Shown here: positions 20,505 through 42,225 of the stretch, piece by piece
Position numbering within the stretch: the stretch's first letter is position 1
Layout of the letters: every line of letters begins with the position of its first letter
Assembly (NCBI GenBank): GCA_963812265.1
Contig: CAWEUL010000005.1
Span: 55,915 to 119,914 of the forward strand
DNA: 64,000 nt
Source of the DNA: an uncultured Actinomycetota bacterium
Lineage (GTDB): Bacteria > Actinomycetota > Actinomycetes > Propionibacteriales > Nocardioidaceae
Direction of reading: 5' to 3'
The notes under the pieces: model-generated
Databases searched by the model: none
What the model saw: only the letters and a program-made list of their open reading frames with translations
Told to the model about the DNA's origin: nothing
Made by a program: the position numbers and the translations under genes

Positions 20505-20523
20505 GATTTCCCTCCTTGGTGTG

Positions 20524-20865
20524 TCACGGCGGTACGAGGTCAGCGATCCCGTCCGGGTCCGCAGCCACGACCCACGTTTCCGGGAGACGGCCGTAGGCCG
20601 GCGGCCGGTCGCTGTCGACGGTGAGCAGCAGCTCGCCCGAGTCCAGGTCGAGGAGCGCGTAGGTGCAGGGGTGCATCCAGTTCGCCTGCGGCATCTGGTC
20701 GCGGAAGACCAGGAGCGACCGGCCCCGGATCTGGTGGGACTCGCTGCCGAGACTGACGGCTCCCGCTTCCCGAACGGCGCGGTCGACGTAGACAACGACA
20801 CCTTCTGCTGCGCCGAAGGCGCGAACTGCCGCCTCGACTGCAACCTCGCTGTCGACCAGCGTCAT
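20524..20865 (-). CDS. 113-aa stand-alone paralogue of the peptidase N-terminal domain
   Basis: LVFRDQMPQANWMHPCTY versus VVFEDQLPGANFGHPCRY in the adjacent peptidase. Confidence 0.75.
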   Translation of the reverse strand: MTLVDSEVAVEAAVRAFGAAEGVVVYVDRAVREAGAVSLGSESHQIRGRSLLVFRDQMPQANWMHPCTYALLDLDSGELLLTVDSDRPPAYGRLPETWVVAADPDGIADLVPP

Positions 20866-21072
20866 CTGGGTCTCACCTGGATCTCGGTCCGGATGAAGGG
20901 AGCCGTGGAGTTCACCGCAGATACAGGACTTTCGCAGAGTACGGCTGATCGGACCGCGGGCACCACCGTCTCCCGGATCGTGCCCGGTCTCCCGTTGCCG
21001 TGTGCGCACGATGGTGGTTCACTGACGAGACCGGGGTTCGGGCCCTGTGGCCCGCTCCGGCGGGAGACGTCC

Positions 21073-24831: not shown

Positions 24832-24832
24832 C

Positions 24833-27800
24833 ATGGTCATCGAGTCCTTCCTGGTCACCGCTCTTCCCCGCACCGCGGATCCCGCTCGCGGCCAGCACGT
24901 GTCGCTGTTCGTCACTCACCGGCTCACCCCGGACGGGGGAGTGGGCGTGGTCGGAGACTTCCCCCACGTCGCGGAGTGGACCGCCGCGTTGGGGAGCGCC
25001 CGGATCGAGCTGCGCGGTCACGTCGGCGGCGTCGAGCACACGATCCCGACGACCGCCCGGCTGGGACGGTTGATCCCCACCCTGTGGCCGCAGGTGTTCC
25101 CGCCGAAGCTCAGTGTCCGGCCCTGGGTCACCGCGGATCCCGCCGCGGAGGAATGGCGCTCGTTCCCGGCCCACCGGATGCAGGCGCATGCGCTGCTGAC
25201 CCACGCCGCGGCAGTCTTCTCCTCGCCCGTCGGCTCGCCGGGAGTCAGCGGCAACGTGCTCACCGGACTCCTGCTCGACGCTCTCGGGCTCCGGCAGTTC
25301 GAGGGCCGGATCTCGATGGACCTGCTCTTCGACGAGGACTTCGGCCTCGACCGGCGGGTCACCGACCTGCTCAACGAGGTCACCGAGGGTGGCCGAACCT
25401 CGCCGAGTGGCGGCCAAGACCCGCTGCTGGCGCTCGCAGCGGACGTCCACCGAGCCCGGCTCTACTACGAGCGGCCGGCCGAGCAGCGCACGTACCGTGA
25501 CCAGCCCGACCCGCAGGCCAGTCCGCCCCCGGTCGTCACACCGGACCCCGACTTCCACGAACGGGCCTCGATGCTCGGCGACCTCTCCCCGCTGCTGCGG
25601 CGGCTGGGTCTGGTGGTCGACCTGCACATCGACGACCTCGGCGCGCTCGCCGGCGTCACGGAGATCAGCGCCTCGATCGTCGTCGCGGGGCTCGACAACC
25701 CGATCAAGAACCAGCCCAGGACCGCCTGCGTGGTGGACGGCCACGGATTCTGGGTGGCCTCGGCGAGCGGTGACCACCATCGTGGCCTGCTGCGCCTGGG
25801 CGATGAGGAGCGGTTCCGGGTGCTGGACCTCGACCCGGACGCCTCCGGCCTCAAGCTCGAGCAGTATGTGCGCAACCTGCCCCGGATGTCGGCCACCGAG
25901 GAGAACGGCGATCCCGCCAGCTCGGCCCCCGCGTCGCTGCGGGCAGCCGGGTTCGCGGTCGCCCGCGTGGATCGCGCCGACCAGCTGCACGCGCAGCTCG
26001 CCGGAGCGCCGGCCCAGGACCAGGCTCTGATCTCGGGAACCGCCGCGCCGTTGACGATCGAGAGCCTCGCCCGCGGTCTCCGCCTCGAGGTCTGGGACGA
26101 CGTCTCGACGCAGTGGCACTCCCTGCACCGTCGCCGGATCGACGTCGAGGTCGACGGCGCCGGCGCCGTGCTGTCCGACACCCCGGACACCGGTTTCCTC
26201 CAGGGTGCGGCGCTCACCCGGTCGGAGGATCCCGACGGGAACACGGTCGCCGCGCCGTACTACTCCCACGAGGTGCTCGCCGGCTGGGAGGGCTGGTCGC
26301 TGTCGGTGCCCAAGCCGGGCAAGGTGGTCATCGCGGATGGAGACGACCCGGTCGACGAGCCCGACCCGGACCCCGACCCGGTCCACCCAGTGGCCACCAC
26401 CAGCCATATCGAACAGCTCACACTGCCGTGGCTGCGCTACGGACGCAGCTACGCCTTCCGTGCCTGGACCGTCGATCTGGCCGGCAACAGCGCCCCCCAC
26501 CGGGTGGCCGGCCCCGACCCGGCGGACCCGGAGGGGCCCGAGACCCCGACGGCGGCACCCCGCCGCACGCCCCGGCGCACCGGACCCGACCCGCTGGACC
26601 TGGCACAGCGTGCCGCGGGTGGCCGGTTGGCGCAGCTTCCGCACGACGCCACCTCCACCGCCGCCGGGCCGGTGCGCGACGCCGTACGCGCGCGGCATCC
26701 GGTCGAGGAGCCCGGCCCCCGCCGCGGGTCCGGGGCCCGCGGGCTCGACCTGACCGAGGTCACCCCGACCGGCATCGCCGCGGTCGACGTGGTGGTCCGT
26801 GCCCGGACGTCCGAGCGGGCCGCGCGGGACGGCGTGCCGGGACCCACCAGGCGGGCCCGCATCGAGACGGCGTTCCACCAGGCGGCCGCCGAGGTGCCGC
26901 ACCTGATGGAGCGGACCGATGTCCACCTGGACCCGGCCCTCCTCGGGTCCGCGCTGGCCTCCGCGGCCCAGACCCAGGCAGACCTGCCGGCGCTCACCCT
27001 GCCGGTCCTCAGCGAGCTCCTGGACCTGGTCACGACACCGCGGCCCTTCCTGCGGTGGGACCCGGTCGTCGAGCCGGTCGTCGTGCCTCGGCACCCTTAC
27101 ACCGAAGCCGAGTCCCAGCTGACGCTCGTCATCCGGTCTGGTGTCGAGCATCCGGACGGCGACGATCCGTATGCCGTCAGCATCGTGGACCCCGGGGCCT
27201 ACAGCGCTCAGGCCAAGGCGGCGCACCCGGAGCTGGACCTGGAGTGGCGGGCCAGGTCCCAGAGGCATCTCGCTCCACCGAAGACCAGCCAGTACGAGGC
27301 GGAGCTGCACGGTCGCTTCGACGCCGCGTTCGGCAGCGCCGACCCGGCTGTGGTCCGCGCTGCGCTCGGGGTCGCCCTGCGTGAGTCGGGCACGCTCTTC
27401 GACCCGACGGTCGCCGACCTCGACCACCCGGGTGAGCGGCTCCCGCAACCTGGGATCGCGTTCCACTCGAGCCCGACGGCCGAGGTGCCGGACGTGACCG
27501 ATCCGGCCGACCTGGAGCGGGGCGCGGGCCTGACTCCGGGTCAGTACGTCGTGCACGGCACCGACGAGCTGACCCTTCCCTATCTGCCGGATCCGCTCGC
27601 GAGCCGGTTCTCGATGACCTTCCCGGACGCGGGCCAGGGTCACCATCTGTTCGGGCTGTGGGCGATCGAGGGGGTGACGCTGCCCTACGCCGGAAGCTGG
27701 CCGCAGTGGCAGCCCTATCGCATGGTGCTGGAGTCCGGACCCACTCTCGAAGCGCGCTCGACCAGCCAGGTGGTGCGGTTCCGAGTACCTCCGGGCGAGC

Positions 27801-29416
27801 AGCTGAGGATGAACCTGTCCTCGGCGATGCGGCGCCAGGACCTCGACCTGCTCGGACTCTGGCGCTCGCTGCCGGAGGCGATCCGCTCGCTCGACGTAGT
27901 GGCCGACGCCGCCGCCGACGGCTGGCTGTGGTGGCTTACGCCCGCCACTCCGGTGCGGCTCGTCCACGCGGTGCCCAAGCCCGTCGAGGTGCCCCGCACG
28001 ACCGTCCTGGTGCCGGTGCGCGTCGCCGACGGGACCGACGTACGGCTGTTCGGCGGCGTCGACCTGCACGGCCCGAGCACCGAACGACTCGACGTCGAGG
28101 CCGAGTGGACCGAGTGGGTGGACGACGTCAGCAAGCCGGCCGGGCCGGAGCAGGTCACGGTGAGCGCGAGGGCCGCCGCCACCTCCGTGGGCTACGACGA
28201 GGACCTCGTGGTGCTCGGAGGTGAGGAGGACTCCTCGATCCCGCTGCCCGACGGAACCACGCTGGCGGTGCACGCCGCCGTGCATCAGCTCGGCGACACC
28301 CGGCACCGGATGATCGACTACCGGATGCGGGCGACCACGCGGTACCGCGAGTACTTCGACCCGCGGGTGTTGCCGACCGTCGACGACGTCTCGGTTGTCG
28401 GCCCGGCGGCCCGGCTCGACGTCCCGAACACGGCCCGGCCGAACAAGCCGATCGTGCACGACGTGCTCCCGCTGTTCAGATGGAACGAGCTCACCGAGCC
28501 GGCGCAGCCGTTCGGCTTGCGACGGACCCGGCGCTCGGGCCTGCGGGTCTACCTGGAGCGGCCCTGGTTCTCCTCGGGGGACGGCGAGCTGCTGGGGCTG
28601 GCCCTGGCGCTCGGCAAGGACACCGCGACCGAGAACCATGTCTGCTTGTGGGGTGGCGACCCGGCCTACCTCCAGGCGGGGCCGGCGCACCGCTCGATCC
28701 TGCCGCTGAGCGACCTCACCCACCTCGCCGGGCTCGACGACCGCCCCGAGGGGGGCCGACCCGTGGGCACCCCGGCCGTGCAGACCCTGGTGGACGTTCC
28801 GGGCGAGCCTCCCGTGTGGGTGCTCGGCTATGAGCCCGTGTTCTCGCCGGAGCGTGGACTGTGGTTCGCCGACATCGCCCTCGATCCTGGGACCGCCATC
28901 TGGCCGTTCGTCCGGCTCGCGCTCACCAGGTTCCAGCCGAGCTCGGTTCCGGAGAAGCACCTGTCTCCGGTGGTGCTGACAGACTTCGTGCCCCTGCCTC
29001 CCGAGCGCACGGCCACCCTCACTCGGCCGGATCGTCGACACGCGCGGGTGATCGTCACTGGGCCGATCGGGGTGCCCGACATGGGCATCGAGGGGATGGG
29101 CTTCGTCGAGTCGCTCCTGGCGTCGCGCACGATGCGGGCCAGGCTGGAGCGTCGCGTGCCCGAGATCCCGTCGGACCTCGGCTGGGAGACCATCGCGTCG
29201 CTCGACCTGCCCATCCTGGGCCTCGAGGGCACGGTCGTGTCGTGGTCGGGCGAGCTGGAGCTGCCGAGTGCCGTGCCCCCGCGTCGGCCCGGCTCGAGCC
29301 AGACCTGGCGGATCGTCCTCGAGGAGTGGGAGACCCTTCCGTCGGACGCGACGGGCAGTGCACGTGGGCTCAGCACCCAGTCGCGCGTCGTCTACGCCGA
29401 CCACCTGCCGCTGTAG
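24833..29416 (+). CDS. Giant hypothetical protein B (1527 aa), likely tandem Ig/FN3-like beta domains
   Basis: Starts 1 nt after the stop of A; YAFRAWTVDLAGN and YRMRATTRY FN3-like strands; Pro/Arg-rich internal linker. Confidence 0.8.
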   Translation: MVIESFLVTALPRTADPARGQHVSLFVTHRLTPDGGVGVVGDFPHVAEWTAALGSARIELRGHVGGVEHTIPTTARLGRLIPTLWPQVFPPKLSVRPWVTADPAAEEWRSFPAHRMQAHALLTHAAAVFSSPVGSPGVSGNVLTGLLLDALGLRQFEGRISMDLLFDEDFGLDRRVTDLLNEVTEGGRTSPSGGQDPLLALAADVHRARLYYERPAEQRTYRDQPDPQASPPPVVTPDPDFHERASMLGDLSPLLRRLGLVVDLHIDDLGALAGVTEISASIVVAGLDNPIKNQPRTACVVDGHGFWVASASGDHHRGLLRLGDEERFRVLDLDPDASGLKLEQYVRNLPRMSATEENGDPASSAPASLRAAGFAVARVDRADQLHAQLAGAPAQDQALISGTAAPLTIESLARGLRLEVWDDVSTQWHSLHRRRIDVEVDGAGAVLSDTPDTGFLQGAALTRSEDPDGNTVAAPYYSHEVLAGWEGWSLSVPKPGKVVIADGDDPVDEPDPDPDPVHPVATTSHIEQLTLPWLRYGRSYAFRAWTVDLAGNSAPHRVAGPDPADPEGPETPTAAPRRTPRRTGPDPLDLAQRAAGGRLAQLPHDATSTAAGPVRDAVRARHPVEEPGPRRGSGARGLDLTEVTPTGIAAVDVVVRARTSERAARDGVPGPTRRARIETAFHQAAAEVPHLMERTDVHLDPALLGSALASAAQTQADLPALTLPVLSELLDLVTTPRPFLRWDPVVEPVVVPRHPYTEAESQLTLVIRSGVEHPDGDDPYAVSIVDPGAYSAQAKAAHPELDLEWRARSQRHLAPPKTSQYEAELHGRFDAAFGSADPAVVRAALGVALRESGTLFDPTVADLDHPGERLPQPGIAFHSSPTAEVPDVTDPADLERGAGLTPGQYVVHGTDELTLPYLPDPLASRFSMTFPDAGQGHHLFGLWAIEGVTLPYAGSWPQWQPYRMVLESGPTLEARSTSQVVRFRVPPGEQLRMNLSSAMRRQDLDLLGLWRSLPEAIRSLDVVADAAADGWLWWLTPATPVRLVHAVPKPVEVPRTTVLVPVRVADGTDVRLFGGVDLHGPSTERLDVEAEWTEWVDDVSKPAGPEQVTVSARAAATSVGYDEDLVVLGGEEDSSIPLPDGTTLAVHAAVHQLGDTRHRMIDYRMRATTRYREYFDPRVLPTVDDVSVVGPAARLDVPNTARPNKPIVHDVLPLFRWNELTEPAQPFGLRRTRRSGLRVYLERPWFSSGDGELLGLALALGKDTATENHVCLWGGDPAYLQAGPAHRSILPLSDLTHLAGLDDRPEGGRPVGTPAVQTLVDVPGEPPVWVLGYEPVFSPERGLWFADIALDPGTAIWPFVRLALTRFQPSSVPEKHLSPVVLTDFVPLPPERTATLTRPDRRHARVIVTGPIGVPDMGIEGMGFVESLLASRTMRARLERRVPEIPSDLGWETIASLDLPILGLEGTVVSWSGELELPSAVPPRRPGSSQTWRIVLEEWETLPSDATGSARGLSTQSRVVYADHLPL

Positions 29417-29441: not shown

Positions 29442-30245
29442 TCAGCCTGCCGGGGCCACGCCGAGCCGGATCGCGGCCACCCCGCGGACTCCGGACGGGC
29501 CGACCACCGTCCGGGACCGACCGTCCGCGGCGACGGCGAGCGCCGCCGCGGCGACGCGCGAGGCACCCGCCGCCGCGCCGAAGCGGTCGGCGGCATCGGC
29601 CGCCCAGGAGGAGCGAACCTCCTCAGGCAGCTGGTCGAGGCTCGCTGCCGTCCAGCACCCCGTGATCGCCGCGAGGCTGCCGCCGCCCTCCGGGGCCGCG
29701 GACAGCCGGACCGCGGCCGCCCCCTCAGCAGCGTCGGGGTGGCCGGCCAGCACCGTCGGCTCCGCAGCGTCGGCCGCGATCGCGAGCACCCGGTCGGCGC
29801 GGCCGGCGCTCAGCAGCCCGCACGCCTCCACCACCGCCTCGAGTCCCGCGTGCTCCCCGCACAGGGTCAGCGCTGGACCGGTGCAGCCGAGCAGGGTGGC
29901 GACATAGCCCACGTGCACGCTGACCACCGTGTTGGGGAAGGCCATCGGGAAGACCCGGTCGGCACCGTGCTCGGCCGCCACCTGCACGAAGTCCGCGAGC
30001 GGGGCGACGCTGGAGCGCGCCGAGCCGAGGACGAGGGCGTCGCGAGGCCCGGTCTCCGTGCCTGGGGGCAGCACCCTGGCCGCCACGCTCATCGCCAGGC
30101 GGGCGGTCCGGGAGAGCGGTCGAAGGCCGCGCAGCACCAGCGCGTCGGCGAGCAGCTCGTCGGTGACCAGCCCCGGCCGCTCGAGCTCGGTGTCGACGAA
30201 ACCCTCCGGACCGAACACGGCCGCGGCGCTGACGTACGCCGTCAC
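29442..30245 (-). CDS. Ketosynthase N-terminal-like, non-catalytic partner (chain-length-factor-like)
   Basis: RVFPMAFPNTV and GPALTL..GLEAV thiolase-fold motifs; catalytic Cys and both His motifs absent; GTGA overlap with upstream KS. Confidence 0.75.
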   Translation of the reverse strand: MTAYVSAAAVFGPEGFVDTELERPGLVTDELLADALVLRGLRPLSRTARLAMSVAARVLPPGTETGPRDALVLGSARSSVAPLADFVQVAAEHGADRVFPMAFPNTVVSVHVGYVATLLGCTGPALTLCGEHAGLEAVVEACGLLSAGRADRVLAIAADAAEPTVLAGHPDAAEGAAAVRLSAAPEGGGSLAAITGCWTAASLDQLPEEVRSSWAADAADRFGAAAGASRVAAAALAVAADGRSRTVVGPSGVRGVAAIRLGVAPAG

Positions 30246-31426
30246 GAGAGCCTCCGGAAGATGGTGACGGCGTTGCAGCCGCCGAAGGCGTAGGCCTGGT
30301 TGACCACGACATCGCCATCCCATGCACGAGGCCCGTCGGTGATGACGTCCCAGTCGCAGTCGGGGTCCTGCTCACCGACGTGCCAGGTCGGGGGCAGCGT
30401 CCGCTCGCGCAGCGAGACCACCGCGAGCACCGCTTCGAGGGCGCTCGCCGCGCCCAGGCCGTGGCCGGTCAGCGACTTCACCGACGACGCCGGTGGCCGG
30501 TGGCCGGTGTACACCGCCCGCAGCGCGAGCACCTCGGCTCGGTCGTTGGCCGGCGTGCCGGTGCCGTGGGCGCTCACCCAGCCCACGTCGTCCGGCCGGA
30601 CCCGGGAGTCCTCGAGGGCGGCCAGCACCGCCCGAGCCGCGCCGGCCCCTTCGGGGTGCGGGCTGGTCGGATGGTGGGCGTCGCACGACAGGCCGGCGCC
30701 GGCGAGTTCCGCGAGAGGCTCGGCCCCGCGTGCCTCGGCGGCCGCCCGCTCCTCGATGAGCAGGAACGCCGCGCCCTCACCCAGAACCAGACCCTGCCGG
30801 TCGAGCCCGAACGGCCGGCACCCGTCCTCGGCCAGTGCCCCGAGCCGGGCGAAGCCGATCAGCGCCGTCCGGCTGAACGCGTCGACCCCACCGGCGAGCA
30901 CCCGGTCACTGCGGCCGGCTCGGACGTCGTCCAGCGCCCGGGTCAGGGCGAAGTTGCCGGCCGCACAGGCACCACCGACCGCGGAGACCCGACCCCCGAC
31001 GCCGAGCTCGTCGGCCACCGCGGCCGCCAGGTCCTCCGGGGTGCCGCCGAGCAGCTCGCGTGCCCGGCCCGGCGGCGGTGGCGCCTGAGCCGCCTCCGCG
31101 TCCGGCCAGGTGTCGATCCAGCTCGGCTCGCCCATGGTCGTCCCCACCACGAGATCGAGCCGGGCCGGGTCGAGGGCGGCTCCGGACAGCGCATCCGAGG
31201 CCGCGACCAACCCGAGCGCCGTCGCTCGACCCCGCAGCGGCCGGCCGTCGGGGTCGCGGACCGGGCCCGGCGCGTCCGGTCCCACCACCCGCGCGACCAG
31301 CCGGCCGTCGTCGTCGCGGGTGACCCCGGAACGACCGGTGAGCGCTGCCTGCCAGGTGTGGTCCGGGCCGCGACCCAGCGGGGAGATCACCCCGAGGGCG
31401 GTGACGACCGCGACCCGGTCGGACAC
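30242..31426 (-). CDS. Beta-ketoacyl-ACP synthase (FabF/KAS II-like)
   Basis: GACAAG (Cys), SAHGTGTPAND and GHGLGA (His, His), AYAFGGCNA. Confidence 0.9.
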   Translation of the reverse strand: MSDRVAVVTALGVISPLGRGPDHTWQAALTGRSGVTRDDDGRLVARVVGPDAPGPVRDPDGRPLRGRATALGLVAASDALSGAALDPARLDLVVGTTMGEPSWIDTWPDAEAAQAPPPPGRARELLGGTPEDLAAAVADELGVGGRVSAVGGACAAGNFALTRALDDVRAGRSDRVLAGGVDAFSRTALIGFARLGALAEDGCRPFGLDRQGLVLGEGAAFLLIEERAAAEARGAEPLAELAGAGLSCDAHHPTSPHPEGAGAARAVLAALEDSRVRPDDVGWVSAHGTGTPANDRAEVLALRAVYTGHRPPASSVKSLTGHGLGAASALEAVLAVVSLRERTLPPTWHVGEQDPDCDWDVITDGPRAWDGDVVVNQAYAFGGCNAVTIFRRLS

Positions 31427-31427: not shown

Positions 31428-31667
31428 TCAGGCCTGCTTGTGACGCACGAGCTCGGCGAGCTGGCGGACGCTGTGAACCGTCTTCAGGTCGGTGTCGTCG
31501 AAGCGCACCCCGCACCGACGCTCCACGTGGACGGCGATCTCCATCGCGAGCAGCGAGTCGATGCCGGCATCCACGAAGGGCGTGTCGAGCCCGACCTCGT
31601 CCGGTGACAGCTCGGCGAGGTCGGCGACCAGTTCGCGGAGGTCGGCGTCCAGCTCGGTCTCGGTCAC
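31428..31667 (-). CDS. Acyl carrier protein
   Basis: GIDSLLAMEI phosphopantetheine site; acidic 79-aa protein. Confidence 0.9.
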   Translation of the reverse strand: MTETELDADLRELVADLAELSPDEVGLDTPFVDAGIDSLLAMEIAVHVERRCGVRFDDTDLKTVHSVRQLAELVRHKQA

Positions 31668-32653
31668 GGGACACCTTCCAGGTCGCGGATCGGGTCAGGG
31701 AGCCCATCGGGCAGGTGGTCGGGTGGCGGGGCGAAGACCGCGCGGGCGCGAACCAACGCGTCCTCGGCCCCGAGCAGGCTCGCCAGCGGATCTCCCACGA
31801 GACGGTACGCCGAGGCCTCCGGACTCGGCGTACCGTCGCTGAGCAGCATCCTGCTCAGCAGGTTTCCGACGTCCGGCGCAGGCCCGCGTAGGGCCGTGGC
31901 GAGGGCGAGCACGATCCGGGTGTTGTCGAGATGCAGCACCGGTCTCACCGCGCCGACGGCCGCCGCGGCCGACCCCTGGAGCACGACCTGCTCGGAGAAG
32001 CTGGTGGCGACCCCACGTCGACTCGCCGTCCAGCAGGTCAACGACAGCAGCAGGCCCAGCGGCTCGGACAGCCCCTCGGGACCGGGCGCCAGGTGTGCCG
32101 CTCGGAGCCCGCGGTAGGCCGCCCACCCGCTGGGTCGTCCGTGACCGAGGTAGACCGCGGCGCCGAGGCCGAGTCCCAGCGCCGTGACCAGGTCCTCCCG
32201 GGTGATCCGCTCGGCACCCCACCGCACGCTCGGCAGGTCGCCCAGGTGGTGCACGAGACGGTCCGAGAGCCGCTGGTAGCGCGGGCTGCGCTGGCCCAGG
32301 ACCGCCACCGGCGACACCTCGTGCCGGGTGGCCACCGCGGTGGCGGCCCGGACGAAGGGCGTGAGATCGCGAGCCGCCGGCAGCCAGCCCGCCGGAATCC
32401 AGCCGTGGTCCGCGGAGCGCACGAACGGCTGGCCGGTGACCGTTCCGGGCTTCCGGCGCCGGTCGCCCACGACCAGCACCCCGGCCGCCCCGCCGGGCAC
32501 CAGCCGCGGCCACTCGTCGTCGGCCGGCAGGTCGTCCCGGGCGATCACCCGCACCGACCGGGAGGCGGAGCGCAGCACGACGAGCGGCTCGAGCTGGGGC
32601 AGCCGCGAGCGCGGGGCGACCAGCACCCAGCACCCGTCCTCCTTGGTCGGCAT
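31664..32653 (-). CDS. Gingipain (peptidase C25)-like clan CD protein
   Basis: VYLGHG His motif, LSLTCWT Cys motif, SFSEQVV...AAAAVGA and terminal YRLVGDP, the order seen in C25 catalytic domains; no signal peptide. Confidence 0.65.
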   Translation of the reverse strand: MPTKEDGCWVLVAPRSRLPQLEPLVVLRSASRSVRVIARDDLPADDEWPRLVPGGAAGVLVVGDRRRKPGTVTGQPFVRSADHGWIPAGWLPAARDLTPFVRAATAVATRHEVSPVAVLGQRSPRYQRLSDRLVHHLGDLPSVRWGAERITREDLVTALGLGLGAAVYLGHGRPSGWAAYRGLRAAHLAPGPEGLSEPLGLLLSLTCWTASRRGVATSFSEQVVLQGSAAAAVGAVRPVLHLDNTRIVLALATALRGPAPDVGNLLSRMLLSDGTPSPEASAYRLVGDPLASLLGAEDALVRARAVFAPPPDHLPDGLPDPIRDLEGVP

Positions 32654-35445
32654 CAGGCCGCCCGCACCTCCACGATGTAGGGATCGAAGTGCACCGTGGA
32701 CTGGCCGGCCTTGTTGGTCGCGTAGAAGTCCTGGACGAGCTGGGCCTGCTGCTCGGGGTTGAACGCGTCGAGCCCGTCATCCTTGTGCGCGTCGAGACCG
32801 GCGTCGCCGCCGTAGTCGTAGCCGTCGGTGGCCTGGCCGATCAGCGCGTGGGCCATGTACGCCGGGCCGGTCTGCTCGCCCTGCCACACGTGCATCAGTT
32901 CGTGGATCAGCCACGACTCCTGAGCGGGGTCGGTGTCGCTGTAGCTGTCGGGGAAGTGGATGATCCGCATCGTGGTGACCCCGGTGTCGCCTCCGGTGTT
33001 GTTCGCAGCAGCCCACGACACGAACGAGCCGACGAACAGCCGGATGTCGTCCATCGGCAGCGTGTCCTCGTAGACGAGCGTGGCCCGCTGGCGCTCGCCT
33101 GTGGTCAGCGGGCGGAACACGCCGAAGACCTCGAGCAGCACCGCCACCACCGTGAAGATCGCGCCGCCCACGATCTCGATCAGCCCGTCGAGGCACTCCT
33201 GGAGGCCGGCGCCGGCATCCTTGAGCGACTGCACCAGGTACCTCTTGTCGGCGTCGTTGAGCGTGAACGCCGGCTCGAGGATGTCCTTGACGGTCTTCCC
33301 GAGGTCGCGCATCGCCTGCACGAACAGGGCTCCGGCGTTCTGCGGTTGCTGGGCGATCGCGACCAGCAGCTGGGCCAGGCTGACTCCGAACGCGAGCGCG
33401 GCCTGCAGGACCGCCACGACGGCGCTCAGTGCCTTCCCCACCGCCCAGAGGATGATCTGGACGACGGCCAGGCCCGCTCTCAGCAGGCCGGTGACGACGC
33501 TGATGAGCCCGGGGATCAGGTCCTTGGCGACCCAGGTCAGCAGATAGCTCACCGAGTTCTTCAGCCGCACCCACACCTCACCGAGCAGGTCGAGCGCCTT
33601 CGCGCCCACGGCCTTGGCCCAGTCGATGACGTCGCGCAGCCTGCTGCCGATGTCCTCGGCGATCCGCACGATCATCTCGAGCAGGTCGGCGCCCTTCTTC
33701 AGCGCCCAGTCCAGTGCCTCGTCGAGCGCCTTGCGGACGAACCGGATCGCCAGCACGGCTTCGCGCATCAACGCGTCGATGGCGTTCCCGGCCTGGGTGA
33801 GAACCCAGTCCAGGACCTCGCCGACCTTGCGTCCGGCGTCGAGGATGCCGGTGATCATCCTGCGCAACAGGTAGTAGGTGCCCTTGGCGGCCTCCTCGAG
33901 GAGCTGGGCGAGCTTGATGCCCGCGGCGAGCGCCGCCTCGACGAACCGACGCGCGGTCCTGTACGTGAACGCGACGACCGCCTGCACGATCTCGACCAGT
34001 GCCTTCCCTGCGGCGATCAGGGCCTTGATGACGTCCCGGATCGCGGAGGTCACCAGCTTGGCCACCTCCTTGACGATCCGTAGGACGGCGTACCCGAGCT
34101 CGAGCGCCGCCTCCACGATGCGTTTGATCGCTCTCAGCCCGGCCTGGGCGAGCTCGTGGACGAGTTCCCCGAGCGTCCGGCCGATCTGCAGGAGCGCCTT
34201 GGCCACGGCCTTCGCGACGGCCACCGCGGCGTTCGCGATGAGGTGGCACAGCTCGACGAAGCCGCTCGCGATCTCGGCGATCGCCCGGACCACCTCGCTG
34301 AGAAGGTGCGCGGCCGCGCTCAGGGTGGCGTTGACGATGTCCGCGATCGCCCGGCCGAGCGCGATCAGCGCCTTCACGGTGTCGCGCAGCAGCGTGAGGG
34401 TGTACTGCGCGGCGGCGGCCAGCAGGTCGCCGATCTGACGACCGAGGGAGAGTAGTGCGCCGACCACGGACTGAAGCACACCAAGGGCGGCGCGGGCGGC
34501 CTGCTGGAGCAGGTTGCCGACGGACTTGCCGATCGCGATCAGCGCCTCGACAACTCGTCGTACGGTGTCGGCGACCTGGGTGGCGAGCCAGGAGAGCAGC
34601 TCGCTGAGCTGGTGTCCCAGGTTGTCGATGGCCCGCAGCAGGTCGACCAGCGCCTGCCCGACGAACCGTGCCGCCTGCTCGAGGATCTGGAACATCGCCT
34701 TCCCGACGTTGCGGATCGCCGAGATCATGTTGCGCACGAAGTCGTAGCCGTAGGCGACAGCGGCCTCGAGGAGGTCGAAGATCGTCTGGCCGGCGTTGAG
34801 CAGTGCCTGGGCGAGGTTGGTGAGCTTGTCGACGGTCCAGTTGACGACGGCGGAGATCGCGTCGACGAGGTCCTCGAACGCGTGGACGACCGCGTCGACC
34901 ACGTTCTCGATCACCTCCTTGATCTCGTCGACCACGTCCTCGATGAACTCGACGACCGCATCGTCGTGGTCGGGCTCGCCCTCGTCGTCGAGCGGCGGCG
35001 CCGCGCTCGTGCGGATCTGGGCGCCCATGGTGGCGACGTAGGTCCACACCTCCTCGAGGGCCGCCTTGTCCTTGCGGCCGGCCGGAGTGAGGACGTAGTC
35101 CTTCATCAGCGCGCGCCCGTGCGCCGCCGGCAGCTCACCGATGGCGTGCACGATCCACTGGTCGTGATGGGCGTCGCGGTAGCCCTTGATCAGGGTGCGT
35201 CGCTCGTCGGCGTCCCGCGAGAGCGCCACCGCCTGGAACACCTGGCGATGCTGGTCGATCGACGGCAGGGTCGTGGCGTACGCCGTCGCGAGTCTCCGGG
35301 CCGCAGGCCTCGAGGTCTTGTACATCTGGCGGTAGACCGGGCCGACCTCGCTCGGCGTCGGCTTGATCTCTGCCACCCGAGCGTTGACCACACCCATATC
35401 GGTCGGCAACGTGCCCAAGGCGTCTAGTACGCGCTGTCCAGCCAT
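32653..35445 (-). CDS. 930-aa helical-repeat protein with C-terminal HExxH (DUF4157-like) metallopeptidase domain
   Basis: RPLTTGERQRA...WLIHELMHVWQ...FNPEQQAQLV; long amphipathic repeat region; GGGAGG RBS before ATG 35445. Confidence 0.75.
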   Translation of the reverse strand: MAGQRVLDALGTLPTDMGVVNARVAEIKPTPSEVGPVYRQMYKTSRPAARRLATAYATTLPSIDQHRQVFQAVALSRDADERRTLIKGYRDAHHDQWIVHAIGELPAAHGRALMKDYVLTPAGRKDKAALEEVWTYVATMGAQIRTSAAPPLDDEGEPDHDDAVVEFIEDVVDEIKEVIENVVDAVVHAFEDLVDAISAVVNWTVDKLTNLAQALLNAGQTIFDLLEAAVAYGYDFVRNMISAIRNVGKAMFQILEQAARFVGQALVDLLRAIDNLGHQLSELLSWLATQVADTVRRVVEALIAIGKSVGNLLQQAARAALGVLQSVVGALLSLGRQIGDLLAAAAQYTLTLLRDTVKALIALGRAIADIVNATLSAAAHLLSEVVRAIAEIASGFVELCHLIANAAVAVAKAVAKALLQIGRTLGELVHELAQAGLRAIKRIVEAALELGYAVLRIVKEVAKLVTSAIRDVIKALIAAGKALVEIVQAVVAFTYRTARRFVEAALAAGIKLAQLLEEAAKGTYYLLRRMITGILDAGRKVGEVLDWVLTQAGNAIDALMREAVLAIRFVRKALDEALDWALKKGADLLEMIVRIAEDIGSRLRDVIDWAKAVGAKALDLLGEVWVRLKNSVSYLLTWVAKDLIPGLISVVTGLLRAGLAVVQIILWAVGKALSAVVAVLQAALAFGVSLAQLLVAIAQQPQNAGALFVQAMRDLGKTVKDILEPAFTLNDADKRYLVQSLKDAGAGLQECLDGLIEIVGGAIFTVVAVLLEVFGVFRPLTTGERQRATLVYEDTLPMDDIRLFVGSFVSWAAANNTGGDTGVTTMRIIHFPDSYSDTDPAQESWLIHELMHVWQGEQTGPAYMAHALIGQATDGYDYGGDAGLDAHKDDGLDAFNPEQQAQLVQDFYATNKAGQSTVHFDPYIVEVRAA
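33140..34815 (-). repeat. Protein-level tandem repeat, about 19 units of 29 aa
   Basis: VEALIAIGKSVGNLLQQAARAALGVLQSV / VGALLSLGRQIGDLLAAAAQYTLTLLRDT / VKALIALGRAIADIVNATLSAAAHLLSEV and further units; Gly usually at position 8. Confidence 0.8.
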
Positions 35446-35649
35446 GTTGATCGCCCTCCCGCGGGCGAACCGATCCCCCACCGGTTCACCGGCTGGCTCG
35501 TGTCGTGCTGCCGCCGCACAGCGGCTAACTGCTCACTGTGGCGGAACAGGCGCCGGACGGCAATAAGCCCGGTGCTCTGGCGCTCGCACGGCGGCCGACC
35601 TGGGCACCTCCGACTTACCAACGACGGAATTTCTGCCCACAATGTCGGC

Positions 35650-38136: not shown

Positions 38137-38406
38137 TCAGGTCGGCAGCACGAGCCGCACCGCGGCCGCCTGGTCCGGCCTGAGGTCGATCGTCAACCCC
38201 ACCATGCCGGAGTCGCCGTACGCCTCGACCCGGTAGCGGCCGGCCCGGGGGACGCCGAAGGCGAAGCTGCCGTCGTCGCCGGTGAGTGCGGCGACGTCGG
38301 CCAGCGCGACCGGCCCCGCCACCAGCGCCACTCGGGCGCCGGCGACGGGCCGGTTCGAGGAGTCGGTGACGGTTCCGCGCACGACCAGCGCAGCCTCCTC
38401 GACCAT
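38137..38406 (-). CDS. Carboxypeptidase-regulatory-like (beta-sandwich) domain protein
   Basis: VRGTVTDSSNRPVAGARV...TGDDGSFAF...GRYRVEA; GGAGGAGG RBS. Confidence 0.8.
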   Translation of the reverse strand: MVEEAALVVRGTVTDSSNRPVAGARVALVAGPVALADVAALTGDDGSFAFGVPRAGRYRVEAYGDSGMVGLTIDLRPDQAAAVRLVLPT

Positions 38407-38434
38407 CAGGAACCGCCTCCTCCGGCGTCGGCGC

Positions 38435-39394
38435 TCAGGCCCGCCAGGTCACGAAGTTGTTGAAGACCGGCGTCGTGATCCGGGTGCCGCTGTTGGTGAC
38501 CGCCCCACCATAGGCGTGCACCGCAACGCCGTACCGGGCCCCGTCGACGATGCGGTAGACCCCGCTGCCGCTCTGGCCGCCGAAGGTGTCGATGTCGTAG
38601 GACACCCGGCGCGCGCTGACCGAGGCCACCCGGTTCCAGCCGTACCACTGGGTCCCGGGCGGCTTGTCGCCCGGGTAGCCGGAGATGTTGACCGTCGAGG
38701 ACGTCAGCGTCGAGTCCGAGAACGCACCGAAGCCCAGCCAGCCGGTGGTGGAGCCCAGGTCGCTGCCAAGAATGATCGCCCCGTAGTCGTAGTCGGGATT
38801 GCCACTGTTGGCCCACCCGGTCACCGTGCGCAGGTTCGACGTGGTGACCGAGCCGTAGGGCAGGGCGCTGCCGTTGCGACCGGGCATCACCTGGATGCTG
38901 CGAACCCAGCCGTCACGTCCAGGGACGCCGCTGTTCTTGATGTAGACCACGTGGCCGGCGGTCGCCAGCGTGTGCGGGCCGATGAACCAGCCGGTCCCGA
39001 TCCACCGCGAGCCGTCGCGCGCGGTGATCAGCAGCGACGCGTGCACCCGCCAGGGGTAGACCGAGGTGTTCGAGATCTGGATCCGGTTGTCCGGCCCGTG
39101 CACGACCTCGGCCGACGGCCCCGTCTCGACCGGGCCGTACGACGCCTCGCCGATCGGCCGCAGCCCGCTCAGATCGGGAACGACCTCGCCGAGCCCGAAC
39201 GACTCGGCCGCCACGACGGCGACGTCCTCGACCTCGTGCCCTGCGACGACCTGGGACTCCCCACCTTCCCCGCTGCTCGGTGCGTCGGAGACCATCTCGG
39301 TCTCCAGCTCCTCGCGCGCGGTGTCGACCTGGTTGGACACCGACAAGTGCGGGTCGGTGGCGGTCTCGTCCGTGGTGTCGACGTGTTCGCTCAT
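38435..39394 (-). CDS. V8/glutamyl-endopeptidase-like (trypsin fold) serine protease with acidic pro-region, no signal peptide
   Basis: TAGHV (His), DYGAI (Asp), GGQSGSG (Ser); NISGYPGDK. Confidence 0.88.
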   Translation of the reverse strand: MSEHVDTTDETATDPHLSVSNQVDTAREELETEMVSDAPSSGEGGESQVVAGHEVEDVAVVAAESFGLGEVVPDLSGLRPIGEASYGPVETGPSAEVVHGPDNRIQISNTSVYPWRVHASLLITARDGSRWIGTGWFIGPHTLATAGHVVYIKNSGVPGRDGWVRSIQVMPGRNGSALPYGSVTTSNLRTVTGWANSGNPDYDYGAIILGSDLGSTTGWLGFGAFSDSTLTSSTVNISGYPGDKPPGTQWYGWNRVASVSARRVSYDIDTFGGQSGSGVYRIVDGARYGVAVHAYGGAVTNSGTRITTPVFNNFVTWRA

Positions 39395-39551
39395 GATGTG
39401 TTTCTCCCCCGTGAAATGCGCGGCCCCCGCGGCCACGCGGCCCCAGGAGGAGGTCAGGGGAGCGGCTGGTGATACACGGCGAAGCCCCGGTCGGTCGGCC
39501 CGTGACGGTCGCCGCGCCAGGAACAACCGGAACGGCTGAGACGATGGGGCC

Positions 39552-40793
39552 ATGGCGCTGAGCGAAGCTGCGGGGTCGTCCACGACCGCGGCGGACCAGA
39601 TGGCGAACCGCGCCTGGGCCTGGGGACGGATCGTCGGCCTCGACATGGCCCGGTGGCTTGCTCTGATCGGCATGATCGCCACTCACGCGCTCGTCGCAGT
39701 GACGCCCGAAGGTGCGGTGACTCTGCCTCAGTCCATCGCCGGTGGCCGCGCTTCAGCACTCTTCGCGGTGCTCGCGGGGGTCTCGATGGCACTCATGAGC
39801 GGGCGGAGGCGGCCGCTGGCCGGCCGCGAGCTCCGAGGGGTCGCCGCCGGTCTGCTCGTCCGGGCCGCACTGATCGCCGCGATCGGCTTGGTCCTGCGCG
39901 AGTTCGGGAGCTCCATCGCGATCATCCTCACCTACTACGGTGCGTTGTTCGCCCTCGGCGTCCTGTTCCTGCGGCTCCGCGCGCGGACGCTGGCCCTGCT
40001 CGCGGCCTGTTGGGTGGTCCTGGCGCCCCTGATCTCGTTCTGGCTCCGGCCGATGCTCCCGGAGCGTGAGTACGGCAGCCCGTCAGCCTCCGACCTGGTG
40101 CATCCGGTCCAGCTGGCCACGGAGCTGCTGTTCACCGGGTACTACCCGGCCTTCACCTGGCTCGCCTACCTCCTCGTCGGCATGGCCGTGGGTCGCTCGG
40201 CGCTGGACCGGTCGCGCACCGGTGTCGTTCTCCTCGTCGTGGGGTCGGCCGTCGCTGCCGGCGCCTCCCTGGTCTCGGGGGCGCTGCTCGGGCGCCCCGG
40301 GGTGATGGGGGAGCTCGAGGCGACGCTCAGCTCACCACCGGGCCGGGGCGGCCTCGAGCTCACGCTCGAGCACGGGCTCTTCGGCACCATCCCGACGGGC
40401 AGCGGGTGGTGGCTCGCGGTCGCGACGCCGCACAGCGGCACCACGTTCGACCTGGCCCGGACGGGCGGGTCGGCTCTGGCGGTGATCGGGGCCTGCCTGC
40501 TGGTCTCACGGGTCGCACCGCGCACGCTCGCGGTCGTCTTCGGAGCCGGGGCGATGCCGCTGACGCTCTACAGCCTGCATGTGATCCTTCGCTCGCCGGA
40601 CCTGTTGCCCGGGGACGACCCGGCCACGTTCGGGACCCACGTCCTCCTGGTGACCATGATCGGCGCGGCCTATCGGCTGATGCGGCGCAGTGGTCCACTG
40701 GAGCGGATGGTGGCCGCCGCGGCAGCCGTCGTACGACGTCGGGTTGAGGACCGGCTCACACCGAGTCCGGACTCGCCGGCTGCCAGACCGTAG
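39552..40793 (+). CDS. DUF418/HGSNAT-like membrane protein
   Basis: RIVGLDMARWLALIGM, GRASALFAVLAGVS, IILTYYG, GAMPLTLYSLH; start uncertain. Confidence 0.8.
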   Translation: MALSEAAGSSTTAADQMANRAWAWGRIVGLDMARWLALIGMIATHALVAVTPEGAVTLPQSIAGGRASALFAVLAGVSMALMSGRRRPLAGRELRGVAAGLLVRAALIAAIGLVLREFGSSIAIILTYYGALFALGVLFLRLRARTLALLAACWVVLAPLISFWLRPMLPEREYGSPSASDLVHPVQLATELLFTGYYPAFTWLAYLLVGMAVGRSALDRSRTGVVLLVVGSAVAAGASLVSGALLGRPGVMGELEATLSSPPGRGGLELTLEHGLFGTIPTGSGWWLAVATPHSGTTFDLARTGGSALAVIGACLLVSRVAPRTLAVVFGAGAMPLTLYSLHVILRSPDLLPGDDPATFGTHVLLVTMIGAAYRLMRRSGPLERMVAAAAAVVRRRVEDRLTPSPDSPAARP

Positions 40794-40866
40794 TCGGGCG
40801 GGGCGGATCAGAGTTGGACTGCGCCAAGTGCAGGACGTGGTTGGGTCGATCTGACAGCATCGTCGA

Positions 40867-42225
40867 GTGACCCGCCACCGGCTCAACCCCGTCGATGCGA
40901 TCTGGCTCAACACCGATCGTGCCGAGAATCGGATGGTGATCGAAGCACTGGTGATGTTGGACGGCCCGCTCGACCGGACCCGGCTGCACCAGCTGCTGCA
41001 GGAGCGCGTGGTGGACGTCTTCCCCGTGTTCAGTCTCCGAACCCAGCGGTCCCGGGTGCCCGGGCGGCTGCCGCGCTGGGTGCGGACGCCCGGCTTCGAC
41101 GTCGCTGACCACGTCCGCGATGGGGTCGTGGACGCGCCCGGTGACGACGCTGCGGTCCAGGCCTACGTCGAGCGATTTCTGGATGCACCCCTGCCGGAGC
41201 ACCGCCCGCTGTGGGAGGTCCATGTGCTCAGCGGCCTTCGCGAGGGGACCGCCTTGTTCGTCCGTCTGCACCACGCGTTGGCGGACGGCATCGCACTCAC
41301 TCGCGTCCTGCTGTCGATCACCGATGCGGACGCGAAGGCAACTCCTGCCCGCCGCGAGCCCCTGCCGATGGGTGAGTCGTTGATCGATGGGATCCGCCCC
41401 GGTGTAGCGATCACCCGGGCCCGGCCCTCGACCCGTGGGCGGTCCGGGGTCCGGTTCGCCCTCCACTCCCCGCGGGTGATCCTGAAGCTGTTGGCGACGC
41501 GCAACCCGCGGACGGCGACGTCGGGCGCCGCGGGCCCGGCCAAACGCGTTGTGTGGTCCACGCCGATCTCGCTGGCGCGTGTCAAGGAGCTGGCTGCCGC
41601 GACCGACACCACGGTCAACGACGTCCTGGTCGCTGCGCTGGCCGGCGCGCTCCACCGCTACCAGACCCACCATGACGGGGTCGCGATCGACGTCCACACG
41701 ATGATCCCGGTCAATCTACGACCGCTCGACCTGCCGCTCCCCACTCGCCTGGGCAACAGGTTCGCCGTGGTTCTGATGGCGTTGCCGTCCGGACGTCTCG
41801 GTGCCCTCCCGCGGTTGGCCGAGACGAAGCGTCGGATGGACATCATCAAGGGATCCCCCGAGCCCTTGCTCACCTTCGGGTTGATCTACACCCTGGGCTG
41901 GGTCGGGACCTGGATGAGCCGGCTCGGGGTGCGCTTCTTCTCCGCCAAGGCCGATGCTGTGACCACCAACGTGCCAGGGCCCCCGGAGCACCGCTATCTG
42001 GCTGGCACCAGGATTCGAGGTCTGCTGGGGTGGGTGCCGGGTTCGAGTCATCAGACTCTGGGTACCTGCATCTTCACCTACGCCGGAGTCGTTCAGATCG
42101 GGTTCAAGGCCGATGCCGGCGCGATCCCGGACCCGGAGCGGATCCTGGCCGACTTCGAGGCCGAGCTGGCTGAGCTCCAGCTGGTGCTGTCGCCCGCCGA
42201 CGAGGCGCTGCGCGCGACGGCGTAG
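40867..42225 (+). CDS. Wax ester/triacylglycerol synthase (WS/DGAT) O-acyltransferase
   Basis: HHALADG catalytic motif, TVNDV, PVNLR, TNVPGP. Confidence 0.92.
   Translation: MTRHRLNPVDAIWLNTDRAENRMVIEALVMLDGPLDRTRLHQLLQERVVDVFPVFSLRTQRSRVPGRLPRWVRTPGFDVADHVRDGVVDAPGDDAAVQAYVERFLDAPLPEHRPLWEVHVLSGLREGTALFVRLHHALADGIALTRVLLSITDADAKATPARREPLPMGESLIDGIRPGVAITRARPSTRGRSGVRFALHSPRVILKLLATRNPRTATSGAAGPAKRVVWSTPISLARVKELAAATDTTVNDVLVAALAGALHRYQTHHDGVAIDVHTMIPVNLRPLDLPLPTRLGNRFAVVLMALPSGRLGALPRLAETKRRMDIIKGSPEPLLTFGLIYTLGWVGTWMSRLGVRFFSAKADAVTTNVPGPPEHRYLAGTRIRGLLGWVPGSSHQTLGTCIFTYAGVVQIGFKADAGAIPDPERILADFEAELAELQLVLSPADEALRATA

Follow-up and report, generated by a model that had tools for sequence, protein, structure and literature searches.

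What does a long bacterial protein do that consists, over most of its length, of helical repeats of exactly 29 residues and that carries an HExxH domain behind them? This question is raised by a gene on the minus strand of a 64,000-nucleotide (nt) stretch of DNA from an uncultured Actinomycetota bacterium of the Nocardioidaceae (GenBank assembly GCA_963812265.1, contig CAWEUL010000005.1, positions 55,915 to 119,914; this whole stretch is referred to as the window). An earlier note on this DNA, made from the letters alone, had described the array and proposed for it either a new alpha-solenoid or an apolipoprotein-like lipid-binding scaffold that would fit the neighbouring acyl-chain enzymes. 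Our analysis of the repeat protein (REP) and its relatives points to another function: REP and the C25-type cysteine peptidase encoded directly behind it may represent a horizontally spread, two-gene polymorphic effector that is built on a solenoid stalk and matured by its dedicated peptidase. We regard this as the best explanation, while granting that its chances fall somewhat short of even.

The REP gene and its 29-residue period

The following parts of REP can be distinguished; amino acids (aa) are counted from the GTG codon at 35481, and HMM stands for hidden Markov model.

32653..35481, minus strand: REP, whole gene (942 aa from GTG 35481 in the list of open reading frames, ORFs)
34987..35445, minus strand: N-terminal all-helical domain of about nine helices (aa 13-165; AlphaFold confidence, pLDDT, >90 at aa 20-160)
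34885..34971, minus strand: acidic amphipathic helix, unit 0 (aa 171-199; in register, with Asp for Gly at position 3)
33754..34884, minus strand: 13 canonical 29-residue units with no indel (aa 200-576; unit HMM E values of 1e-9 to 1e-12 per unit)
33127..33753, minus strand: degenerate helical units and hydrophobic helices (aa 577-785; weak unit-HMM matches, AlphaFold helix pairs, hydropathy)
32656..33126, minus strand: C-terminal DUF4157/VgrG2b-type gluzincin metallopeptidase head (aa 786-942; PDB 6h56, Pfam eCIS_core, pLDDT 80-95)
32890..32904, minus strand: HELMH zinc-binding/catalytic motif of the head (H860, E861, H864; conservation in family members)
32752..32754, minus strand: E910, third zinc ligand (aligned with the Glu of NIEQQ in VgrG2b, 6h56)

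The GC contents of the three codon positions of REP (0.71/0.41/0.93, hence a third-position value, GC3, of 0.93) are typical of genes at the 68-75% GC of the window, and REP is therefore a real gene. Its true start is probably the ATG at 35445, giving a protein of 930 aa, the called GTG start being too long; a GGAGG sequence is located 9 nt 5' of this ATG, and REP homologues align from residue ~8 on. The REP locus was absent from RNA-seq runs and was found to be carried only by soil and sediment metagenome DNA.

The span in which the repeats had been seen before (33140..34815) corresponds to aa 223-781 of REP, and the claim of a strict 29-residue period within it is borne out. Self-similarity of REP, scored with BLOSUM62, has sharp peaks at lags 29, 58 and 87 only; the value at lag 29 is 0.81, compared with a shuffle maximum (lags 20-44) of -0.51 +/- 0.046 (z = 28.6; reached in 0 of 2000 shuffles). 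Helical-phase lags (18, 22, 25, 33, 36) score about zero or below, so that the period of REP exceeds generic amphipathicity; lag 11, like lag 22, is also about zero or below. The register is perfect from aa 171 to aa 576, which corresponds to 14 units written in rows of 29, and no Pro is present within aa 171-656. An HMM derived from the 13 canonical units weakly finds about five more degenerate units, and about six to seven degenerate units follow aa 576, up to aa ~785; most likely, the stalk of REP comprises about 20-22 units in all. The previous count of about 19 units over about 560 aa, with the last few irregular, was accurate in view of 13 canonical units, unit 0 and about six to seven degenerate ones, and the acidic amphipathic helix that had been placed ahead of the array is itself an in-register unit without Gly.

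As had also been noticed, the repeat is not visible at the DNA level. Tandem Repeats Finder (TRF) detected no 87-nt repeat in REP DNA; its units share 46% nucleotide identity in register versus 34% out of register, and 23% amino acid identity. The 29-residue units are ancient, diverged modules. With regard to possible transmembrane anchoring, hydropathy flags two segments of REP (aa 655-710 and 763-794); the first of these is charged in the homologue P0001, and its hydrophobicity is thus no feature of the family. The N-terminal domain (N-domain) is constant across the family, including the variants with alternative heads discussed below; searches with it yielded no match in Pfam, NCBIfam or PDB, nor to any known trafficking domain.

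The metallopeptidase head

The HExxH domain reported behind the repeats is present as HELMH at aa 860-864, and it is of a known kind, a DUF4157/VgrG2b gluzincin toxin domain. Profile searches matched the C-terminal effector domain of VgrG2b (PDB 6h56) with E = 3.8e-9 when four sequences were used and with E = 3.3e-12 when 41 were used, over ~130 residues that span R790, the HExxH motif and the N-x-E-Q-Q motif. Pfam eCIS_core (PF13699) reaches 23.1 bits in REP against a cut-off of 22, and only four of the 41 members match it at E <= 0.01. In 24 long-form homologues, H860, E861, H864 and E910 are all invariant; among the 41 family members, E861, H864 and E910 never vary, while H860 is found in at least 90%. 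Judged from its sequence, the head of REP is a DUF4157/VgrG2b-type gluzincin with intact catalytic residues, in which E910 lies ~45 residues past HExxH. Wood et al. classify the C-terminal domain of VgrG2b, annotated as DUF4157, as a thermolysin-like gluzincin with E983 as its third zinc ligand; this domain is toxic in the periplasm only and harmless in the cytoplasm, and a small immunity ORF is located downstream (PMC6899460).

A C25-type peptidase as the partner of REP

31664..32653, minus strand: C25 (gingipain/PorU-like) cysteine peptidase of 329 aa, with a start codon (ATG) that overlaps the stop of REP (TGATG)
32141..32143, minus strand: catalytic H171 of C25 (aligned with the RgpB His)
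32033..32035, minus strand: catalytic C207 of C25 (aligned with the RgpB Cys)

The near-universal partner of REP went unnoticed in the earlier note. In a synteny survey of 82 loci, covering 10 kb on either side of REP, a C25-like gene is located directly 3' of REP and on the same strand in 72, with a median offset of -7 nt. The protein from the window scores 30.4 bits with Pfam Peptidase_C25 (PF01364; cut-off 23), and a profile of its orthologues finds both RgpB (gingipain R2; 4ief, 7.8e-6) and PorU (6za2, 9.4e-6) with His and Cys aligned: the Y-x-GHG motif aligns with His211 of RgpB, the strand-end Cys with Cys244, and the Y-x-L-x-GDP end motif with PorU. The catalytic dyad is preserved among the orthologues (His in 72 of 73, Cys in 71 of 73). 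The N-terminus MPTKEDGCWVLVAPRSRL contains no signal-like segment by eye, and no extra domains were found in C25.

The heads of REP-type proteins can be exchanged. Five variants combine the N-domain and the repeats with a Metallophos (P0125, P0129), a DUF4474 (P0104) or an unassigned head (P0061, P0132), and all five are followed directly by a C25-like gene in which GHG...SC is kept, although some of these peptidases have shrunk to ~170 aa. P0133 (locus L093, 1946 aa), in contrast, consists of a signal peptide, about nine PKD domains and then a terminal helical segment with a DUF4157 head, and has neither the N-domain nor a C25 neighbour. Because C25 is retained across all five alternative heads and is absent from P0133, the peptidase belongs to the scaffold and not to the head. 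This swapping of heads points to an effector system instead of a lipid carrier.

Two side observations concern these variants. The Asp-rich motifs of P0133 resemble calcium-binding sites, and the flanks of three alternative-head loci (L090, L091, L092) contain a HipA/helix-turn-helix (HTH) toxin-antitoxin pair, an N6/N4 DNA methyltransferase, and genes for single-strand binding protein (SSB) and ArdC; such flanks hint at mobile or defence-island contexts in a sample that is too small to judge.

Architecture of the unit and predicted fold of the array

A sequence logo was derived from 938 units taken from 172 family proteins. With phi denoting a hydrophobic residue, it begins with x, [ALI], G3 (98%), [KR]4 (68%), [TS]5 (56%), phi, x, [ED]8 (66%), phi and phi; its later part contains [GTA] at position 17 and then phi, V, x, A27 (75%), L and [LI]. 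The (V/I/L)xALxxxG-type pattern read by eye was right, the profile being phi2-G3-[KR]4-x-phi6-x-[DE]8-phi9-phi10 ... phi24-V25-x-A27-L28-[LI]29. Pro is almost confined to position 17 of the units, where Thr, Gly or Pro represents a helix-end signal. The Gly at 231+29k is invariant or nearly so in the 24 long-form homologues, which stem from several phyla; to judge from these patterns, the Gly C-cap and the ensuing S/T-x-x-E/D capping box mark the end of one helix and the start of a new one. In the REP units of the window, 17 of the 29 positions are apolar and uncharged and cover a face of ~200 degrees on a helical wheel. Their hydrophobic spacing is 4-3-4-4-3-4-4-3 (11+11+7), with a Fourier peak at exactly 29/8 = 3.625 (power 1139 versus 6 at 3.5); this peak is no proof of a continuous helix, because such a harmonic is expected of any strict 29-residue repeat that bears helices.

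When AlphaFold was provided with 41 family sequences, the N-domain was modelled with pLDDT values >90 and the head with values of 80-95; between them, pLDDT was 84-95 at aa 180-260 and 70-87 at aa 480-640. Throughout the confidently modelled stretches of the array (pLDDT 70-95), positions 6-14 of each unit form helix A and positions 18-30 helix B, with a turn between the two and the Gly turn behind the second. Foldseek searches of PDB with the whole model retrieved nothing but alpha-solenoids of a generic kind (CRM1, importin-alpha, p120 catenin and designed repeat proteins), all with template modelling (TM) scores <=0.25, and profile searches of PDB gave weak matches only, to designed helical repeats and tape-measure proteins. 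Because of the capping signals in the logo and the two-helix units of the AlphaFold model, the array is most likely a new alpha-hairpin solenoid of very short period, as predicted by modelling, and neither a continuous coiled coil nor an apolipoprotein-like 11/22-mer. Hence, the alpha-solenoid put forward in the earlier note stands as the best structural reading of the logo, the AlphaFold model and the Foldseek results, and the suspicion of a new repeat family agrees with the fact that neither Pfam nor NCBIfam holds a model of its own for it. The period of 29 differs, as had been remarked, from those of TPR (34), ANK (33), PPR (35), ARM (42) and HEAT (37-47) repeats; no TPR, ANK, PPR or ARM model matched in the 41 members, and one of the 41 gives a weak HEAT match (HEAT_RRP12_N, E = 0.0021).

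The most conserved residues of the stalk other than Gly (in the long forms T506, Y507, A510, L528, Y536, R540 and W559) form a cluster at 33900-34020 of the window, equivalent to REP aa ~490-560 and units 11-13, which is the part of the array that AlphaFold models most confidently. By its conservation, which includes F-T-Y-R and T-Y-Y at aa 505-540, this segment is a candidate partner-binding patch.

Distribution of the family and change in copy number

A word-indexed homologue search yielded only 3-5 relatives of REP because low-complexity words saturated the candidates. The family was therefore delineated through an exhaustive HMMER search over 50%-identity cluster representatives, in which 3564 proteins passed a threshold of E <= 1e-3 and 178 of these one of E <= 1e-30, and through a separate scan of one genome per species, which revealed 355 coding stretches from more than ten phyla. 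Members are present in the Actinomycetota, Chloroflexota, Bacteroidota, Pseudomonadota, Acidobacteriota, Verrucomicrobiota, Nitrospirota, Gemmatimonadota, Cyanobacteria, Planctomycetota and Fibrobacterota, and in one metagenome-assembled genome (MAG) of the Saccharimonadales. The closest cultured relative of REP is that of Nocardioides halotolerans DSM 19273 (85% identity). All named members that we saw are labelled 'hypothetical protein', and a literature search found no description of a REP/C25 system. The REP family thus appears to be undescribed; its parts are of known kinds (alpha-solenoid, DUF4157 gluzincin, C25 peptidase, ketosynthase, chain-length factor and acyl carrier protein), and it is their arrangement that appears undescribed.

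Near-all full-length members consist of the N-domain, a middle part with a period of 29 (or 58) and an HExxH head. In the short forms, the distance between W215 and HExxH is 202, 231, 260, 289, 376, 405 or 434 residues; all of these values equal 28 mod 29, and units have hence been gained and lost as wholes. The long forms, with distances of ~640-661 residues, possess ~22 units across phyla. The variation in repeat number among homologues that the earlier note had proposed to look for is therefore real and proceeds in exact 29-residue steps. Several short forms (P0005, P0008-P0011, P0019, P0024, P0027) have their strongest self-similarity at lag 58 (up to 1.48) and not at 29, a pattern that suggests recent duplication of two-unit blocks.

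The genes for an acyl carrier protein and a ketosynthase pair

31428..31667, minus strand: acyl carrier protein (ACP), 79 aa, with the phosphopantetheine Ser38 in GIDSL (31554..31556); NCBIfam ACP models
30242..31426, minus strand: FabF-like ketosynthase (KS), 394 aa, with Cys154 (30965..30967), a His in CDAHH and a His in SAHGTGT; Pfam ketoacyl-synt N and C domains
29442..30245, minus strand: truncated KS-like partner resembling a chain-length factor (CLF), ~267 aa from GTG 30245; Pfam Ketoacyl-synt_2 (PF13723)

In the window, C25 is followed by three genes of acyl-chain metabolism. The nearest solved relatives of the KS include FabF and Iga11 (6kxd), the KS of a KS/CLF pair, and AmcF is among the models. 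The CLF-like gene, whose called start is probably too long, the start being placed at GTG 30245, is without the C-terminal half that bears His-His, and in an alignment to KS, the KS Cys is faced by a residue other than Cys. REP and C25 share a TGATG overlap, C25 and ACP a GTGA overlap, ACP and KS are 1 nt apart, and KS and CLF again overlap by GTGA; as read from these joins, the five minus-strand genes REP-C25-ACP-KS-CLF are translationally coupled.

The link to these acyl-chain genes, which had been proposed before, is real as far as gene order is concerned, since REP-C25-ACP-KS-CLF is kept in Actinomycetota, Chloroflexota, Bacteroidota and Pseudomonadota, and Candidatus Thiodiazotropha (L001) has the same order of REP, Peptidase_C25, PP-binding, KS and a small fifth gene. 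It does not extend to the family as a whole: KS or CLF genes are present in 38 and ACP genes in 34 of the 82 loci (~45%) and are missing from more than half. KS occurs almost exclusively with long forms (31 of 57, versus 3 of 25 short forms). Residues specific to REP proteins from KS-containing loci include Y68, H78, Q83, G100 and Y101, and these may mark a clade only. The cassette contains no ketoreductase (KR), dehydratase (DH), enoyl reductase (ER), cyclase, thioesterase or acyltransferase gene.

Across the 82 loci, no gene is conserved 5' of REP and none beyond C25, ACP, KS and CLF, with the exception of one LGFP-like case. Six KS-less long-form loci (L038, L041, L042, L046, L047, L050), which derive from Nitrospirales, Opitutaceae, a Verrucomicrobiae bacterium, Nodosilinea, Terriglobales and a betaproteobacterium, contain a gene for a protein of 400-660 aa directly 5' of REP and on the same strand, whose motifs (FxGGSIYWHP...GxLGYPxTDE) we take to be LGFP-like. 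As an accessory, this protein may take the place of the KS/CLF/ACP trio.

Possible functions of the cassette

If REP and C25 are indeed a polymorphic effector, the stacked 29-residue hairpins would form a stalk with the N-domain at one end and the swappable enzymatic head at the other, and this stalk would serve as a rigid docking platform for C25. The peptidase would cleave REP, either in the variable linker that follows the N-domain or where stalk and head join, and thereby release or activate the head, which would then attack a protein target in the manner of the VgrG2b metallopeptidase toxin. ACP, KS and the CLF-like gene would extend the REP and C25 module in the subfamily of the window, by supplying acyl-ACP, whose acyl or polyketide chain would be bound by, or attached to, the stalk.

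Several points weigh against this explanation. No cleavage site in REP was identified, and clan CD enzymes can be transpeptidases, as is PorU, and not simple proteases. By inspection, none of the five cassette proteins has an evident signal peptide; because the C-terminal domain of VgrG2b is harmless in the cytoplasm, the site at which the head acts is left unexplained. No immunity gene was seen at REP loci. The role ascribed to KS, CLF and ACP is pure inference, 55% of the loci being devoid of these genes. As to the stalk, AlphaFold confidence falls to pLDDT <50 at aa 266-476, where long helices are drawn, and a run with four sequences (mean pLDDT 43.8) was unusable for the repeats. Finally, the match to Phasin_2 considered next is specific for the direction of the sequence, and this leaves room for a surface-binding role.

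On the basis of that match, REP could be viewed as a giant phasin- or apolipoprotein-like coat whose repeats lie on or wrap a lipid, polyketide or polyester body made with KS/CLF/ACP, to which the head would be tethered. Phasin_2 (PF09361) scores 31.9-35.3 bits (cut-off 24.9), 24 of the 41 members match it, and the match is lost on reversed and shuffled sequence and hence does not stem from composition alone; the wide apolar face of the units, the conserved ACP/KS/CLF synteny and the low AlphaFold confidence in mid-array, as expected of a conditionally folded protein, are in keeping with such a coat. The ApoLp-III, Apolipoprotein and Perilipin matches, however, are weak and all below their cut-offs, there is neither an 11/22-mer period nor punctuation by Pro, more than half of the loci lack lipid genes, and no pha or other lipid-body genes are conserved near REP in the 82 loci. 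The nearly invariant Gly, the capping box and the two-helix units speak for a compact folded hairpin, and the Phasin_2 match probably reflects the common helix, G-x-T, helix motif. What is left of the earlier idea of apolipoprotein-like lipid binding is the Phasin_2 match and the synteny with acyl-chain genes, while capping and hairpins favour the solenoid, and we consider the coat unlikely. A sortase-like anchoring can also be envisioned, in which C25 would act in the manner of PorU (C25) and GPI8 (C13), cut REP and ligate the new end to an amine-bearing lipid, built by KS/CLF on ACP in those loci that have KS, so that REP would turn into an effector anchored by lipid. The match of the C25 profile to PorU is as good as that to gingipain and covers the His, the Cys and the GDP motif at the end; PorU, a transpeptidase, attaches cargo to anionic lipopolysaccharide (LPS) (PMC4560394, PMC8545088); the Cys-His enzyme is the sole candidate for chain release in a cassette without thioesterase or acyltransferase; and the five genes are tightly coupled. 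We nevertheless hold this proposal to be quite improbable, as nothing speaks for an amine-bearing acceptor, 55% of the loci have no KS, the system, in contrast to PorU and GPI8, appears to be cytoplasmic, and REP ends in a peptidase domain and not in a conserved C-terminal sorting signal. We are just as doubtful that REP, C25, ACP, KS and CLF jointly form a cytoplasmic lipidation or anchoring machine, with a stalk that binds acyl-ACP and a C25 enzyme that cuts REP and transfers it onto a polyketide or fatty chain; if it did exist, it would amount to a lipid-tethered protein with swappable heads and to a new route of protein lipidation in more than ten phyla. Its weaker form would make the array a giant phasin-like coat of a KS-made hydrophobic body.

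That the array is instead a continuous 29/8 coiled-coil rod or molecular ruler, akin to SF-assemblin or tape-measure proteins and made of long unbroken helices in a bundle, appears very unlikely to us. Apart from the Fourier peak, an a/d-like spacing that runs on across the Gly, the lack of Pro in aa 171-656, the helices of 70-85 residues drawn in the four-sequence AlphaFold model, the weak profile matches to tape-measure proteins and the ZorA tail, the ~22 units kept by long forms across phyla, and the precedent of a 29-residue segmented coiled coil in SF-assemblin (PMC2119799) can be adduced for it. This peak, however, is the harmonic discussed above; the Gly followed by T/S-x-x-E/D and the Thr/Gly/Pro at position 17 are helix-end signals, the deeper AlphaFold run splits every unit into two helices wherever it is confident, and the width of the apolar face, ~200 degrees, greatly exceeds what a two-stranded coil would allow. 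Immunity proteins vary along with the head of their toxin. C25 stays with the scaffold when the head is a Metallophos, DUF4474 or unknown domain, and its catalytic dyad is kept in 71-72 of 73 orthologues; although it is translationally coupled to REP and occupies the position of the immunity gene in VgrG2b-type cassettes (PMC6899460), its interpretation as an immunity or antitoxin partner of the DUF4157 toxin is hardly credible and in effect ruled out, because C25 goes with the scaffold whatever the head.

Three further candidates were rejected. REP is not cargo of an extracellular contractile injection system (eCIS) or a type VI secretion system (T6SS), as genes of neither system are conserved in the 10 kb to either side of REP across the 82 loci. 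Gingipains cut after Arg or Lys, but REP is unlikely to be a multi-core peptide precursor that would be cut behind Gly-Lys/Arg in every unit, as its units are 23% identical and conserved mainly at structural positions. A ZorA-like identity was dismissed, since PADLOC gave a weak match to the ZorA tail only, which was judged to be compositional.

Should C25 mature or lipid-anchor an effector, as the effector explanation and the anchoring proposal respectively have it, bacterial effectors would be seen to be activated or anchored by a new logic. Independently of this, the repeat defines a family of several hundred members from more than ten phyla for which there is no Pfam or NCBIfam model, and an unusually short helical hairpin that never shifts register and changes its copy number in exact units is of interest for the evolution and design of repeat proteins. 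The cassette also places the DUF4157/VgrG2b toxin domain in a context without a contractile injection system, reveals a minimal and apparently cytoplasmic branch of the gingipain/PorU family, linked to a single partner that resembles a substrate, and offers a conserved case of KS/CLF/ACP genes wired into an operon for a protease and an effector.

Other genes of the window

Two giant ORFs on the plus strand (20413-24831 and 24605-29416; ~1250 and 1527 aa after plausible starts) are convergently oriented relative to the cassette. Both lack a 29-residue period and a Pfam match above the cut-off, PDB gave no match to the second, and in none of the related loci, N. halotolerans included, did tblastn find them in the 10 kb around REP; they do not belong to the system. 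A second clan CD peptidase (Peptidase_C13/legumain-like, 572 aa; 19143-20861, minus strand) is encoded ~10 kb from C25, and a weak C13-like match is present 3' of REP in locus L067. A WS/DGAT gene (wax ester synthase/diacylglycerol acyltransferase; 40855-42225, plus strand) is located ~5 kb from REP, an adjacency that is not conserved elsewhere; the source organism probably makes neutral-lipid bodies. The window further encodes an M14 carboxypeptidase with an InhA-like MAM domain (3986-7189, plus strand) and a trypsin-like peptidase beside a protein with a CarboxypepD_reg domain (38137-39682, minus strand).

Comparison with known systems

REP shares with VgrG2b and PAAR fusions a C-terminal domain borne by a long carrier, and with VgrG2b the HExxH motif and the downstream Glu in N-x-E-Q-Q; its carrier, however, is not a VgrG/PAAR spike, and the downstream gene encodes C25 and not a small immunity ORF. 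The layout of eCIS cargo, in which an NTD (N-terminal domain) that is disordered is followed by DUF4157 and then by a CTD (C-terminal domain), is also not that of REP, whose DUF4157 domain is located C-terminally, behind a folded N-domain and the stalk. In comparison with gingipains and PorU, the C25 partners of the cassettes are small (~170-330 aa) and devoid of a signal peptide, a pro-domain, Ig-like domains and the T9SS (type IX secretion system) CTD; they are always coupled to REP and occur in Gram-positives and in many phyla without T9SS.

Like the alpha-solenoids of the HEAT, ARM, PBS-lyase HEAT-like and designed helical repeat (DHR) types, REP is predicted to possess helix-turn-helix units that stack into an elongated superhelix, but its period of 29 is shorter, its helices comprise only ~9 and ~13 residues, and its register is free of indels. 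SF-assemblin and beta-giardin have in common with REP the repeat length of 29 residues and the 29/8 helical periodicity (PMC2119799); the eukaryotic SF-assemblin is a two-stranded rod of four heptads plus a skip, whereas REP is characterized by Gly turns, capping boxes and a 200-degree face, without sequence similarity to it. Phasins resemble REP in their helix, G-x-T, helix motif and their amphipathic helices, yet they are stand-alone proteins of 100-200 residues encoded next to pha genes, whereas REP proteins have 500-1200 aa and enzymatic heads and lack a pha context; the NCBIfam model phasin_2 (TIGR01985) scores 18.7 bits on REP against a cut-off of 99.7.

The ACP, KS and CLF-like proteins correspond to those of type II systems (Iga11/Iga12, AmcF/AmcG) in having a FabF-like KS with Cys-His-His, a truncated non-catalytic partner and a discrete ACP; in contrast to the genes for type II polyketide synthases (PKS) and fatty acid synthases (FAS), the trio is part of an operon for a protease and an effector and not of a biosynthetic cluster. 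With the polymorphic toxins, finally, the REP family has in common a constant trunk of N-domain and repeats, interchangeable C-terminal heads and a peptidase that is associated with the trunk. No head-specific immunity gene was found at the alternative-head loci, and searches with the N-domain revealed no recognisable secretion-system domain. The peptidase is built into the polypeptide in polymorphic toxins, whereas in the REP cassettes it is the product of a separate gene.

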